From Clostridia bacterium (GTDB taxonomy: Bacteria > Bacillota > Clostridia > Monoglobales > Monoglobaceae), in assembly GCA_045578465.1 (NCBI GenBank), contig JAZNKJ010000009.1, forward strand, positions 14,881-78,880: a stretch of 64,000 nt of DNA, given 5' to 3'. Each line of letters opens with the position of its first letter. The stretch's first letter is position 1. The position numbers were made by a program, and so were the translations under genes. Below the pieces are notes generated by a model. That model was not told the DNA's origin. It ran no database searches and saw nothing but the letters and a program-made list of their open reading frames with translations. Below are positions 54,528 to 59,326 of the stretch, piece after piece.

Positions 54528-56465
54528 ATGAAAGGGATTATAAGAATATCGGCTGTTGTGCCGGAAATTTCCGTTGGGAATGTGGACAAAAACCTTGCGG
54601 AGATTATGGAAAAAATTAAAGAGGCGAGAGAAAACGGGGCAAGGATTGTTCTCTTCCCTGAGCTTTCTTTGTGCGGGTATACCTGCGCCGATTTGTTCTT
54701 TCAGAAAACCCTTATTTCATCTTCTTATAAAGCAATAAAACGGGTTGCAAGCTTAACTTTGGAACAGGATATAACAGTAGTTTTAGGTGCGCCTTTAATG
54801 TATAAAGGAAGGCTCTTTGACTGCGCATTTGTTATTGCAAAAGGTAAGGTTTTAGGCGTTGTCCCGAAATCCACTATAAAGAACTATGAAGGCTTTTCGG
54901 AAAAGAGATATTTTGCATCAGGGGAAGGCGTAAGAGAAATAATTTCCTCAAAAGAGCTTATGTTTAAGGACGAATATGACATTCCTTTCGGGGAGGATTT
55001 GATTTTCTCCCTTGGCGGTGCAAGATTCGGAATTGAAATCGGAGAAGACTTAATGTCTCCCGTTCAAATAAGCAGTCTTTTATCCCTTGGCGGAGCGGAA
55101 ATAATCTTAAACCCCGGCGCAAACAACGAAACCGTTGGGAGTCGCGAAAAAACCGAAGACGCAATAAGAGAGGCTTCAAGAAGAAACCTCTGCGCCTATG
55201 CTTTTGCATCCGTTGGGGCAACAGAATCAACCTCTGATATGGTTTTCTCAGGACAGATTTGCGCTTACGAGAGAGGCAATCTTGTTACTAAAAACGAAAC
55301 AGTTGCGGCGGAAGAAGATATGCTCTTTATGGATATTGACCTTGACAAAATAAGGGCGGACCGTCTTAAAAATACAACCTTTAAGGATTTTATTGATGCA
55401 GAACAAAACGAGTTTTGCGAGATTTTAATTGATGTCGAGGAAGAGGAAAACGACGGCAGATTTTTGAAGGTAAAAAAAACTCCCTTTATCCCAGAGGATA
55501 AAGAGGAGCGAGAAAAAAGATGCAAAGAAATATTTGAAGTTCAGGCAAAAGGCCTTGCAAAACGCCTTAAAATAACAGGCGGAAAGGCGGTTATCGGCAT
55601 ATCAGGAGGCCTTGACTCAACTCTTGCCCTTTTGGTTTGCACAAGGGCAATGGATATTCTTGGACTTCCAAGAGAAAATATTTTCGCCCTTACTATGCCT
55701 GCTTTCGGCACATCAGGAAGAACATATAACAACGCCAAAAAGCTTATGGAAGCTTTGGGAGTAACGGCGAAAGAAATAGATATAAAAGATGCCTGCCTCA
55801 AACATTTTGAGGACATCGGACACGACAAAGAAAAACTCGATTTGACCTATGAAAATGCTCAGGCAAGAGAAAGAACCCAGGTCTTGATGGACTATGCGGG
55901 CGAAGTCGGCGGTATCGTTGTGGGCACAGGAGATTTAAGCGAAATGGCGCTTGGCTGGTGCACCTATAACGGCGACCATATGAGTATGTATAGCGTGAAC
56001 TGCGGAATTCCCAAAACTTTGATTTTTGAGATTGTTAAAACCCTTTCTATGACGGAAGCTTTTGAAAATGCAAAAGAGGTTTTAGAGGATGTTGTTGACA
56101 CACCCGTAAGTCCCGAGCTTTTGCCTCCCGATAAAAAAGGTGAGATTTCTCAGGAAACGGAAAGTCTTGTTGGGCCGTATATTCTCCACGATTTCTTTAT
56201 ATATAATGTCATCCGTTTCGGATTTTCTCCAAGCAAGATTTTTGAAATGGCGAAAATCGCCTTTAAGGATGATTTTTCAGAAGAAATCCTATTAAAATGG
56301 CTTAAAAATTTCTATAAGAGATTTTTCACTCAGCAATTTAAAAGAAACTGCGTCCCCGACGGGATTAAAATAGGAAGCGTTGGCCTTTCTCCAAGAGGCG
56401 ACTTCTCTATGCCGTCTGACGCGGCAGCAGACATCTGGCTCCGCGAAGCCGAAAATTTAATATAA
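54528..56465 (+). CDS. nadE: NAD+ synthase (glutamine-dependent, long form)
   Basis: 645-aa ORF with an N-terminal nitrilase-like CN-hydrolase domain and a C-terminal synthetase with the PP-loop GISGGLDS. Confidence 0.9.
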   Translation: MKGIIRISAVVPEISVGNVDKNLAEIMEKIKEARENGARIVLFPELSLCGYTCADLFFQKTLISSSYKAIKRVASLTLEQDITVVLGAPLMYKGRLFDCAFVIAKGKVLGVVPKSTIKNYEGFSEKRYFASGEGVREIISSKELMFKDEYDIPFGEDLIFSLGGARFGIEIGEDLMSPVQISSLLSLGGAEIILNPGANNETVGSREKTEDAIREASRRNLCAYAFASVGATESTSDMVFSGQICAYERGNLVTKNETVAAEEDMLFMDIDLDKIRADRLKNTTFKDFIDAEQNEFCEILIDVEEEENDGRFLKVKKTPFIPEDKEEREKRCKEIFEVQAKGLAKRLKITGGKAVIGISGGLDSTLALLVCTRAMDILGLPRENIFALTMPAFGTSGRTYNNAKKLMEALGVTAKEIDIKDACLKHFEDIGHDKEKLDLTYENAQARERTQVLMDYAGEVGGIVVGTGDLSEMALGWCTYNGDHMSMYSVNCGIPKTLIFEIVKTLSMTEAFENAKEVLEDVVDTPVSPELLPPDKKGEISQETESLVGPYILHDFFIYNVIRFGFSPSKIFEMAKIAFKDDFSEEILLKWLKNFYKRFFTQQFKRNCVPDGIKIGSVGLSPRGDFSMPSDAAADIWLREAENLI

Positions 56466-56469
56466 AAAT

Positions 56470-56502
56470 AAAAGAGCTTTGAATTCTCAAAGCTCTTTTT
56501 TG
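56470..56502 (+). terminator. intrinsic terminator of nadE
   Basis: Palindrome AAAGAGCTTTGAATTCTCAAAGCTCTTT followed by a T-run. Confidence 0.75.
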
Positions 56503-56746
56503 TGTTTAAAATAAGGGATGAGCAGGAAGAAATCGGTGTTATAGACAGTGGTTTTGAAGAAATATACATACCCGCTGTTACTATGCCTGTGACCTTGAAC
56601 ATGGGGACAGCTTAAAGAATTTTGATAAGATGTTTTAGTTTCAAGAGAGAGAAGTGTTTTTATTTGTTGAAGAAATTCCTTATATAAAAACCATCCGGTG
56701 AAAACACTCCTTCAAAAAAGTCAGCGGATTTATACTGTGAGAGATT

Positions 56747-57030
56747 TTATATGTCTATTGTCAGATCTGAGTCTATAATATCGTTAATCGACTTCTCGCC
56801 GGAAACAATCGTCAATCCATTTTCTCCGCCTTGTAGTTTTCCTTCGATAGTGTCATAAATAAGCGGACAATTTTCGTGCTTATCTTTGACTTCAACAGAA
56901 AAATTTTCCGGTCGATTATTTTCAGGCTCTCTATGAAAGTTTGTTCTCTATCCTTTATGGAATCAAAAAAATCTTCTAAAATGTTGCTTCCAATGTGGGC
57001 AACGAATTCAAAATTTAGAGAAAACTCTTG
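56747..57030 (-). pseudogene. C-terminal remnant of an unidentified gene (no start codon, one frameshift)
   Basis: Minus-strand translation reads ..LNFEFVAHIGSNILEDFFDSIKDREQTFIESLKIIDR. A frame change follows at the A5T5 run near 56897..56912. It then reads ENFSVEVKDKHENCPLIYDTIEGKLQGGENGLTIVSGEKSINDIIDSDLTIDI before a stop. The composition is protein-like, but there is no start and the upstream part is replaced by the divergent cassette. Confidence 0.4.
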
Positions 57031-57056
57031 AAAAATTAAATGGAGAGTGATACAAT
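57028..57056 (+). promoter_or_regulatory. sigma-A type promoter of the two-ORF cassette
   Basis: TTGAAA (57028..57033), 17-nt spacer, TGaTACAAT extended -10 (TACAAT 57051..57056). Confidence 0.6.
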
Positions 57057-57088
57057 AAAGGTGAAAAAAGTGAAAGCGAGTCGATATA

Positions 57089-57565
57089 ATGAATGAGCAC
57101 GTTGAACAAAGCTTTGTTGGTTCATCAGAAAGTGGTGTGACAAAATATTTAGATTTTTGTTATTTAGATAATATTATCGGAAAACCATTATTGAAAAGAG
57201 AAATTCAATCTATTATTCAATTAGCAGAAAAAGGGCTTTTGGATGATGCATATTCAAAAACGGTTAACATGTTGATGATAATTCTTGCTGAATATATTGC
57301 TCCCAAATTAGACAAAAAAGAGTATTTCTCATTTTATGATGCAATAGAGTATTTAATCATCCATTCAGAGAAGGAAATAGCGGGTGCATTAACTTCAATA
57401 AATGGCGAGTTTAACTTTGTCGAGGAAATAAATGAAATGGCATTGTTTTATTTGCTTTCGTTAGTAACTTATACATACGATATGCTACTTGATAGATATG
57501 GCGAAATGGAGTTTATGGATGAAGGGGCGCCAAGAACTAAGAAAGGAACAAAAAATGAATTATGA
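57089..57565 (+). CDS. hypothetical helical protein, faint sigma-70 region 1.2/2-like
   Basis: 158-aa ORF. By eye, VTKYLD..IGKPLLKREIQSIIQLAEKG..NMLMIILAEYI..FSFYDAIEY is colinear with SigA regions 1.2-2.2, but the 2.3/2.4 residues are not conserved. The stop overlaps the start of the next ORF. Confidence 0.55.
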   Translation: MNEHVEQSFVGSSESGVTKYLDFCYLDNIIGKPLLKREIQSIIQLAEKGLLDDAYSKTVNMLMIILAEYIAPKLDKKEYFSFYDAIEYLIIHSEKEIAGALTSINGEFNFVEEINEMALFYLLSLVTYTYDMLLDRYGEMEFMDEGAPRTKKGTKNEL

Positions 57566-57893
57566 TGTTGAATATGAGCTCTTTAATTTCACACTTAAAG
57601 AAATTTTGATGATACTTTCGGTAACACTTACCGAAAGAGAGTTTGAGTTTATGGCTTTTCGTTTAGGACTTTTGATAGATAGAAAATTTAGTGAGAAAGA
57701 ATTGCAAACTAATTACCTGGAATTGCAAAAACAACGGATAATTATTCCGCACTCGTTTCAAGAAATTGCTCTTAGGTACGGCTATACCCTTGTGAGAACA
57801 AAAGCTATAGCTACAAAAATAGACAGAAAGATTCTAAACACTCTTCGTCATAATAAAATTCGCAGTGCCAAATTAAAAGCTTTTCTGGAGTAG
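57555..57893 (+). CDS. stand-alone sigma-70 region 4-like HTH protein (112 aa)
   Basis: The ATG at 57555 follows GAAAGGA. LTEREFEFMAFRLGL and SFQEIALRYGYTLVRTKAIATKIDRKILNTLRHNKIRSAKLKAFLE resemble the C-terminus of primary sigma factors, including the terminal ..LK.FLE. Confidence 0.6.
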   Translation: MNYDVEYELFNFTLKEILMILSVTLTEREFEFMAFRLGLLIDRKFSEKELQTNYLELQKQRIIIPHSFQEIALRYGYTLVRTKAIATKIDRKILNTLRHNKIRSAKLKAFLE

Positions 57894-57921
57894 TAATGTA
57901 GAGCAAATTGATCTTACATAT

Positions 57922-57958
57922 AAAAAAGGTACAGCTATATTAGCTGTACCTTTTTTTT
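57922..57958. terminator. bidirectional terminator between the cassette and tRNA-Leu
   Basis: Stem AAAAAAGGTACAGC/GCTGTACCTTTTTT with loop TATATTA. Confidence 0.75.
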
Positions 57959-57961
57959 CAG

Positions 57962-58048
57962 TGGTGCGGATGACAAGATTTGAACTTGCACCGAGAAACC
58001 TCGACTGGCACCTGAAGCCAGCGCGTCTGCCGATTCCGCCACATCCGC
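57962..58048 (-). tRNA. tRNA-Leu (anticodon CAG), encoded CCA
   Basis: Manual fold of the minus strand. Acceptor GCGGATG/CATCCGC. Anticodon arm CTGGC-TTCAGGT-GCCAG gives CAG. Long variable arm. T loop TTCAAAT. Discriminator A plus CCA. Confidence 0.9.
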
Positions 58049-58102
58049 ATTTGACCAGCAAAAAAATTGTATCACAAAACTGTTTTTTAGTCAATGATTT
58101 TT

Positions 58103-59326
58103 CTAACTTTCAATTTTTGAAGGGTTAATTTTCTTTATGCTCACAAGAAGAACAAGAGGGAAAATTACGGAAACAAAAATTCCTGCTTTAAGGCCTGCCT
58201 GCTCAGGTCCTACCCCTAAAACATTTCCGAGGTTTGTATAAGTCTTAACTAAATCTGCAACAATTCCTGCTATGTATGGGCCGAAGGTACAGCCTAGATC
58301 TCCGAAAAAGGCAAGGAGACCGAAAAGGGTTGTTCCGCCTTTTGGAAAGCATCTTGATGCCAGAGAAAAACAGCCGGGCCAGAGAATGCTTGACCCAAGG
58401 CCAAGAAGTGCACAACCGATTAAAGCGATAGCAGGGGACGGGGAAAGGGAAGTTAAAAGATAACAGATAATCCCTAGAACCGCAGAGCCAATAAGGGTAA
58501 GACGAAGATTTATTTTATTCCCCAAGAAGCCATAAAGAACTCTTCCAGAGCCCATAAAAAGAGCGAAAAGTCCGGGGCCTAAAAGGTCGCCCACTACCTT
58601 TGAAACTCCAAGGCCCTTTTCTGCGAAAAGAGAGGACCACTGGGCAATTGTCATTTCCGTTGCCCCTGAGCAGAGCATCATCAAAAGAAAAAGACAAAAG
58701 GTTTTAGAACTAAGAAGCTCCCGAAGGGGAGTTTTTTCTTCTTTTGAAACCATAGGTGCAAAAGGAACTCTCAAAAAATTAAAGATATTTACAAAAGGAA
58801 TAATCGCCCAGATAATCGGAAGAATAAACCAGTTTTGCCCCCCTAAAAGCTTTAAGGCAAGGGTTGAGAATAGGACAACCGCAAGCTGTCCCCAGCAGTA
58901 AAAGGAATGAAGAAGACTCATAGCGGAGGACTTGCTTTCCGAGGGGATTGCGTCAACCACAGGGCTTACCATAACCTCAATAAGCCCGCTTCCGTAGGCA
59001 TAAAAAACTATGGCGATTATCATTCCGACATAGGGAGAGGGCAGAATTTTCGGGAGAACGCCCAAAAGGACAAGACCAATGGTGCTTACAATATGGGCAA
59101 GAACGATTGAATTTCTGCAACCGAATTTATCCACCGTATAAACCGAAAGAATGTCAGTTATAATCTGCACTCCGAAATTTATAAAGATAAGGAAGCTTAT
59201 CTGGGTCAGGGAGATATTATAATCCTGCTGAAAGATAACAAAAAACACAGGGGCGAGGTTGTTTACAATCGCCTGAGTGAAATATCCGATATAGCAAGAA
59301 AGAATTGTTGACTTATATGAAGCCAT
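58103..59326 (-). CDS. MFS transporter
   Basis: 407-aa ORF with about 12 hydrophobic segments in a typical MFS layout. It starts 11 nt after the rseP stop. Confidence 0.8.
   Translation of the reverse strand: MASYKSTILSCYIGYFTQAIVNNLAPVFFVIFQQDYNISLTQISFLIFINFGVQIITDILSVYTVDKFGCRNSIVLAHIVSTIGLVLLGVLPKILPSPYVGMIIAIVFYAYGSGLIEVMVSPVVDAIPSESKSSAMSLLHSFYCWGQLAVVLFSTLALKLLGGQNWFILPIIWAIIPFVNIFNFLRVPFAPMVSKEEKTPLRELLSSKTFCLFLLMMLCSGATEMTIAQWSSLFAEKGLGVSKVVGDLLGPGLFALFMGSGRVLYGFLGNKINLRLTLIGSAVLGIICYLLTSLSPSPAIALIGCALLGLGSSILWPGCFSLASRCFPKGGTTLFGLLAFFGDLGCTFGPYIAGIVADLVKTYTNLGNVLGVGPEQAGLKAGIFVSVIFPLVLLVSIKKINPSKIES

Follow-up and report, generated by a model that had tools for sequence, protein, structure and literature searches.

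A free-standing protein homologous to region 4 of primary sigma factors in a likely mobile-element remnant beside a tRNA-Leu(CAG) gene

Sigma functions can be carried by two polypeptides encoded side by side, as in SigO–RsoA of Bacillus subtilis and in gp55 with gp33 of phage T4, where a region-2-type subunit binds core RNA polymerase (RNAP) and recognises the -10 element. Region 4 alone neither binds core RNAP through the beta-prime clamp helices nor melts the -10 region. Small free-standing proteins with a Sigma70_r4 domain are annotated in many phages, none of them characterised, and Orf7 of Tn916 is annotated as sigma-70 region 4-like. Together with Orf8 it is one of the small positive regulators that lie near the recombination genes of this Gram-positive mobile element (PMC5812530). 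In the literature that we searched, no stand-alone protein equivalent to region 4 of a primary sigma factor is described. Here we analyse a two-gene cassette in a 64,000-nt stretch of a Clostridia bacterium of the Monoglobaceae (GenBank assembly GCA_045578465.1, contig JAZNKJ010000009.1, positions 14,881 to 78,880 of the forward strand), hereafter the window, whose numbering is used below unless a related locus is named. A first-pass annotation had read the cassette as a split, highly diverged SigA-derived sigma factor. We find that its second gene, ORF2, encodes an intact free-standing homolog of region 4 of primary (SigA/RpoD-type) sigma factors and that its first gene, ORF1, does not appear sigma-like. 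The cassette is probably (at about 0.55) what is left, after rearrangement, of a small mobile element at tRNA-Leu(CAG), with ORF2 likeliest a helix-turn-helix (HTH) regulator of that element.

ORF2 (57555–57893, plus strand; 112 aa, pI 9.6) overlaps ORF1 (57089–57565, plus strand; 158 aa, pI 4.6) by 11 nt in ATGAATTATGA, as first annotated. The assignment of ORF2 to sigma region 4, originally made by eye, was borne out. In BLASTP against a B. subtilis SigA sequence, residues 7–112 of ORF2 aligned to residues 296–371, the very end of SigA, across a 21-aa gap (E 2e-5). Only three close relatives (65–76% identity) were present among 5.8 billion protein clusters, and a four-sequence profile, run exhaustively with HMMER over 1.84 billion representative proteins, added just the distant members P0006, P0007 and P0008. 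Compared with the PDB, the seven-member profile reached a best E of 3.4e-9; 58 of the 60 matches listed were sigma-70-family factors, and all but two of these 58 were the primary factors SigA, RpoD or HrdB. The alignments fell into two colinear pieces, residues 19–39/45 on region 4.1 and residues 65–111 on region 4.2 and the tail, and extended to the last sigma residue. P0008, the most sigma-like member of the family, matched Pfam Sigma70_r4 at 36.6 bits (cutoff 24.1, E 3e-9) and had the C-terminal end of RpoD models as its top NCBIfam matches, and P0007 came near the same Pfam cutoff with 22.4 bits. An AlphaFold model of ORF2 built on the seven-sequence alignment (pLDDT 85.5; the model from four close sequences, at pLDDT 58, was too uncertain for use) is a single sigma4 fold, its helices matching those of region 4 with the addition of an insertion. 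The 50 best PDB matches of this model in Foldseek were all region 4 of sigma-70-family factors (target-normalised TM up to 0.78, probability about 1), and phage Sigma70_r4-domain proteins are among its structural neighbours. A small HTH protein of the LuxR/GerE type was also considered for ORF2 and found no support, the best sequence and structure matches being sigma factors; neither ORF2 nor P0006, P0007 or P0008 matched the Pfam GerE / LuxR C-terminal HTH.

The likeness of ORF2 to SigA/RpoD region 4 (PF04545, Sigma70_r4) runs from the end of the 3.2–4 linker (YELxxxxL) through region 4.1 (LTxRE...RxG) and the HTH of region 4.2 to the RSxKLKxFLE tail. Unlike its counterpart, ORF2 is a separate protein without regions 1–3, has 21–25 extra residues between regions 4.1 and 4.2 (two short helices in the model) and has three to four more residues before LRH. 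Region 4.1 occupies about residues 19–39, the family-specific insertion about 40–66, and the region 4.2 HTH with the C-terminal tail residues 67–112. An insertion of about 20 aa and a terminal FLE had been remarked on in the first-pass annotation; they correspond to the BLASTP gap and to a conserved KLKxFLE tail. Because region 2 is absent, and with it core recruitment and -10 melting, ORF2 by itself is not a sigma factor. It shares with the small phage Sigma70_r4 proteins (76–136 aa in BFVD, for example A0A8S5Q5G5 and A0A6J5LKM7) and with DUF1492 phage proteins a single-domain sigma4 fold of about 100 aa and, probably, a place on mobile DNA. The phage proteins, however, are only 10–20% identical to it, whereas the ORF2 family is nearest to primary sigma factors and keeps the C-terminal tail. 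Among free-standing sigma4 proteins the family, which derives from a primary (SigA/RpoD-type) sigma factor, is a rare variant, set apart by its closeness to primary sigma factors, by the insertion and by being linked to an element at tRNA-Leu(CAG).

About eight members of this sigma4-like family are known (ORF2, P0002, P0003, P0004, P0006, P0007, P0008 and a 113-aa protein of the related locus L096), and free-standing primary-sigma region 4 proteins of this kind are very rare. No further member was found in IMG/VR by protein patterns or by two DNA patterns, in GTDB genomes, in JGI metagenomes by a protein pattern (a DNA pattern returned eight chance matches and no relative), or by tblastn of phage and plasmid collections. 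The insertion in the 4.1–4.2 loop is present in every member, at about 21–25 aa, with D42 and L50 invariant. Further invariant residues are R28-E29 of the LTxRE motif, G38, E70, A72, R91 and L111, and the sigma4 scaffold kept family-wide includes this motif together with the HTH and the KLKxFLE tail. Positive charge in ORF2 is concentrated in the HTH and the tail. In Escherichia coli sigma70 the main -35 base-reading arginine is R584. L79, V80 and A84 of ORF2 sit where sigma70 has R584, E585 and Q589, and R81 and K83 are retained at the positions of R586 and R588. The residue aligned with R584 is replaced in all members, and those aligned with E585 and Q589 in most.

The ratio of non-synonymous to synonymous substitution rates (dN/dS) is 0.17–0.45 in pairwise comparisons across the family; values near 1, which the first-pass annotation had named as counter-evidence, were not seen. 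Measured to the outgroup L007, dN is 0.40 for the window copy and 0.34–0.40 for its relatives, and the frame, start codon and ribosome-binding site of ORF2 are intact. The sigma4-like gene is therefore under purifying selection and not visibly decaying. The suggestion that the cassette might be a decaying sigA duplicate is not supported: the gene belongs to a probable mobile-element family under purifying selection, the window copy shows no acceleration, and it lies in a foreign, low-GC island.

ORF1 fared differently. It had been aligned, colinearly, with sigma regions 1.2–2.2, but BLASTP against SigA gave a best E of 12 and did not recover the proposed segments, and no match was obtained in Pfam, NCBIfam (E <= 10) or PDB sequences. 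Among about 15 billion proteins ORF1 has no homolog but itself; its best PHROGs match has an E of 0.083, tblastn of phage and plasmid collections gave no match, and no similarity was found to the 132/138-aa and 127/128-aa families encoded in related loci. ORF1 is nonetheless unlikely to have its length by chance (10 of 20,000 shuffles reach 158 codons), and its GC content at the three codon positions (GC1/2/3) is like that of ORF2 and unlike that of host genes (nadE and the MFS gene). Because it sits behind the promoter of a gene that encodes a 311-aa protein in related loci, ORF1 was compared with that family as a possible diverged member; the candidate was rejected (hhalign E 0.28; hmmsearch 1.7 bits, a score matched by 218 of 3,000 shuffles). 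We conclude that ORF1 is, as far as its sequence tells, neither sigma-like nor a conserved partner of the sigma4-like gene: among relatives, the pair is not conserved, ORF1 being absent elsewhere and the sigma4-like gene having other neighbours.

Those neighbours account for the overlap of the two genes. Upstream of the sigma4-like gene lies a NADAR gene in the related loci L002, L003 and L007 (the L002 frame matches Pfam NADAR at E 4.6e-19), a 5'-truncated NADAR gene in L096 and an unrelated gene for a 138/132-aa protein in L001/L006. In the window, a remnant of the NADAR 3' end (57490–57554, plus strand; about 13–20 codons, ~65 nt) remains in the frame of ORF2; its segment LWMKGRQELRKEQ at 57513–57551 agrees with the C terminus of the L002 NADAR protein at 12 of 13 residues (tblastn E 0.005), and the ribosome-binding site of ORF2, AAAGGA (57542–57547, plus strand), lies inside it. 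Relative to L002 and L003, a 1-nt indel puts the last ~20 codons of ORF1 out of frame over NADAR-derived DNA, and ORF1 terminates at the old NADAR stop codon. The ATGA-type overlap, which had been taken as translational coupling and as a sign of joint function, was therefore inherited from the NADAR/sigma4-like junction and says nothing on a partnership of ORF1 with ORF2. NADAR has been cut back independently, to 57 codons in L096 (2477–2640), about 15 in L001 (~1110–1160) and about 20 in the window, and the sigma4-like gene is intact at every one of these loci. NADAR is the ancestral upstream neighbour. The partial gene upstream of P0008 (L004/L005 1–105) ends in ...NGRHRILAARAIG..., in which, by eye, a ParB/sulfiredoxin-type motif may be seen. 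Phages carry orphan NADAR antitoxin-like enzymes that act against DarTG1 (PMC11257639); the related loci likewise carry NADAR, adjacent to the sigma4-like gene and upstream of it.

In the related loci the sigma4-like gene is part of a module. It is followed by a gene for a 77-aa membrane protein, often by one for a 72-aa membrane protein, and then by the 311-aa gene; upstream lie NADAR and an SH3+M23 peptidase. Some loci have two paralogous genes after the 311-aa gene, encoding 128-aa and 127-aa proteins in tandem with 37–39% mutual identity (L096 4507–5303, L098 2267–3063) and without a family or PDB match. L096 also encodes a tyrosine integrase (Pfam Phage_integrase, E 4e-14) that reads away from the sigma4-like gene. 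In L097, a hairpin and a tRNA-Leu(CAG) follow a 315-aa element gene, arranged as in the window, and beyond them lie a gyrA-like fragment and another tRNA-Leu(CAG). The two tRNA copies (1503–1588 and 2661–2747) are in tandem on the same strand, with a 284-aa gene carrying a partial DNA_topoisoIV (GyrA-like) domain between them, an arrangement that suggests one insertion after another at the same tRNA. The 311-aa protein found no match in phage and plasmid collections and no assignment in Pfam, PHROGs or the PDB, so that it does not name the element type. Similarity to sigma factors is absent from the neighbour families A6, A7 and A8, nor is a region-2-like protein detectable among the neighbours.

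Both ends of the cassette can be matched to this module. Upstream of ORF1 is the near-consensus extended -10 promoter-like site of the first-pass annotation, which a promoter scan found at 57028–57056, plus strand (TTGAAA at 57028–57033, a 17-nt spacer and TG-n-TACAAT ending at 57056; 10 of 12 consensus matches, TG present). The surrounding 57011–57066 is 79–87% identical (blastn) to L007 4474–4526 and L006 1863–1899, both of which are intergenic DNA upstream of the 311-aa gene. TTGAAA-17-TGATAYAAT is a conserved element ahead of the 311-aa genes of L007, L006, L096, L097 and L098, and in L096 (3467–3495) it is the best promoter-like site, with 11 of 12 matches. Its GGAG-n-TGAT part also resembles a Shine–Dalgarno sequence and in L007 lies right at the annotated start codon, so a promoter is only one possible reading of the element. 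Downstream of ORF2, a perfect 16-bp hairpin (57922–57956) between A6 and T8, the T-run following it, folds at -23.6 kcal/mol over a 72-nt stretch (z = -4.8; none of 200 shuffles folds as well). Five nucleotides from it is the 3' end of a tRNA-Leu with anticodon CAG (57962–58048, minus strand; ARAGORN, and Rfam tRNA at 54.7 bits), convergent with the cassette and absent from the first-pass description. From the hairpin to about 25 nt into the tRNA 3' end (57919–57986), the window shares ~79% identity with the ends of the module in L096 and L098; in L097 the match is longer and covers 57911–58050 at 70%. The strong hairpin terminator described earlier is real, but it is not dedicated to the cassette, because it adjoins the convergent tRNA and is homologous to the element end elsewhere; by its sequence it resembles an intrinsic terminator usable from both strands and common to the cassette and tRNA-Leu. 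The cassette is accordingly a mosaic that runs from the promoter of the 311-aa gene through a unique ~420-nt ORF1 segment, what remains of the NADAR 3' end and the sigma4-like gene to the element end and tRNA-Leu. Its apparent operon logic, with a promoter of its own, coupled genes and a terminator of its own, probably arose as a side effect of recombination when the element decayed beside a tRNA gene.

Ordinary chromosomal genes flank the cassette. Upstream is a 645-aa open reading frame (54528–56465) that we take from its translation to be NAD synthetase (nadE), and downstream a 407-aa membrane protein, presumably an MFS transporter by its translation, whose gene is followed by two more minus-strand open reading frames. 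Just past the nadE stop codon lies a 13-bp hairpin bordered on either side by T-runs (56470–56499), which looks like a two-way terminator and marks the upstream edge of the low-GC stretch. This island (56600–57900), seen in the composition profile at 56600–57800, between the nadE terminator and tRNA-Leu, has 30–33% GC against 40–44% in both flanks. Within the ~500 nt from the nadE terminator to the promoter (56500–57010), one minus-strand frame spans nearly the whole stretch with several stops interrupting it, perhaps a decayed gene; a Pfam search with its translation gave no match. The tRNA was the only feature above threshold in an Rfam scan of 56300–58200. The best match to NadE among 185,579 GTDB species representatives is only 51% identical (Eubacteriales/Faecousia/Oscillospiraceae metagenome-assembled genomes), so the source organism is without a close relative among them.

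We propose for ORF2 the role of a small, basic HTH protein that regulates the transcription of element genes and whose DNA specificity is altered. To this role we would give roughly even odds; it would be analogous to that of small sigma-like regulators found in conjugative transposons and phages. ORF2 would bind DNA at a specificity other than TTGACA. This fits a recognition helix that is conserved and basic, backbone-contact residues that are kept, base-reading residues that are replaced and a module that adjoins recombination genes. Tn916 Orf7 and Orf8 would be alike in role, and their neighbouring genes differ. In this genome the element targets are gone, and ORF2 may have been kept for a host-directed effect or may be a young relic. 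An alternative is that the sigma4-like gene is leftover cargo of a decayed element, perhaps transcribed from a borrowed promoter and without a host role, with ORF1 a junction-generated or truncated coding fragment. All other module genes are indeed missing from the window, neither an integrase nor an att repeat was found in it, 56500–57010 is without an intact gene, and ORF1 is an orphan whose C terminus comes from out-of-frame NADAR DNA. Yet the near-consensus promoter, the intact frame, start codon and ribosome-binding site, and a dN to the outgroup that is not above that of the relatives fit such a relic poorly, as does the fact that the upstream DNA has been replaced independently at several loci with the sigma4-like gene always retained; we regard this explanation as doubtful. 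Far less probable still, to the point of being very improbable, is a two-polypeptide sigma factor of the SigO–RsoA or gp55/gp33 type, with ORF1 as a degenerate sigma2 and ORF2 as sigma4. The two genes are adjacent, co-oriented and overlapping behind a single promoter, one product is acidic and the other basic, and the length and composition of ORF1 mark it as genuinely coding. What the cassette has in common with those systems is nevertheless only the concept of sigma functions on two side-by-side-encoded polypeptides: similarity of ORF1 to sigma regions 1.2–2.x was absent in Pfam, NCBIfam, PDB and pairwise comparisons, the -10 recognition and melting residues are missing from it, as the first-pass annotation had also remarked, and a region-2-type subunit is detectable neither in ORF1 nor in any neighbour family. 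The pairing of ORF1 with ORF2 is unique to the window, the upstream gene varying by locus, and the overlap goes back to NADAR.

A further possibility is that ORF2 is a sigma4 decoy, which would have kept the surfaces through which primary sigma docks on the beta-flap tip helix of RNAP or is gripped by activators and anti-sigma proteins, and would itself dock there or titrate such sigma4-binding factors; in one variant it would displace region 4 of host SigA, damping -35-dependent promoters and sparing extended -10 ones, including the element's own. We think this unlikely, and equally so its evolutionary form, in which an element captured the 3' end of a primary sigma gene and made of it a decoy that shifts transcription from -35-dependent promoters to the element's extended -10 promoters, the 4.1–4.2 insertion providing the new function. 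Several features agree with a decoy: the family resembles primary sigma factors (RpoD/SigA) specifically and not extracytoplasmic function (ECF) factors or LuxR-type HTHs, the promoter conserved in the element belongs to the extended -10 class, and the R584-aligned residue is replaced throughout and those of E585 and Q589 mostly. The far C-terminal KLKxFLE tail, which does not read DNA, is kept (L107, F110 and L111, the last invariant), although these hydrophobic residues may be mere fold core. Two distant members are acidic (L007, pI 4.8; L004, pI 6.0), a poor fit to a pure DNA binder. The NADAR neighbours belong to a known kind of gene with which phages counter host defence (PMC11257639), and the module could on that account serve to manipulate the host. 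Against this, few segments of the close subfamily are better conserved or more basic than the recognition helix, as expected of DNA binding, and the searched literature offered no described precedent for a decoy. The reading that we prefer, a rearranged element fragment whose ORF2 is an element regulator, also has points to answer, besides the acidic members. ORF2 alone matched nothing in Pfam or NCBIfam (E <= 10), nor did deletion of its insertion yield a Pfam match, and PHROGs likewise gave no match, so that its assignment to sigma factors rests on transitive profile evidence and the seven-sequence model, for which the Foldseek E-values are modest (7e-3 at best). Because the window holds no integrase, no other module gene and no att-type repeat of the tRNA-Leu 3' end, all of which were sought there, the mobile-element origin of the cassette is deduced from the other loci. 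Those loci lie on short metagenomic contigs, none longer than 8.9 kb and none with a complete element and both ends, and neither IMG/VR, the phage and plasmid collections, GTDB nor the JGI contigs supplied an element type.

At present the value of these results is mostly corrective, in that the cassette is not a split sigma factor. Should the sigma4-like protein act on RNAP or on DNA of the -35 type, mobile elements would have in it a compact natural tool for retuning promoter recognition in their hosts, and it would then also be an example of an element that captured a single domain of a housekeeping sigma factor.

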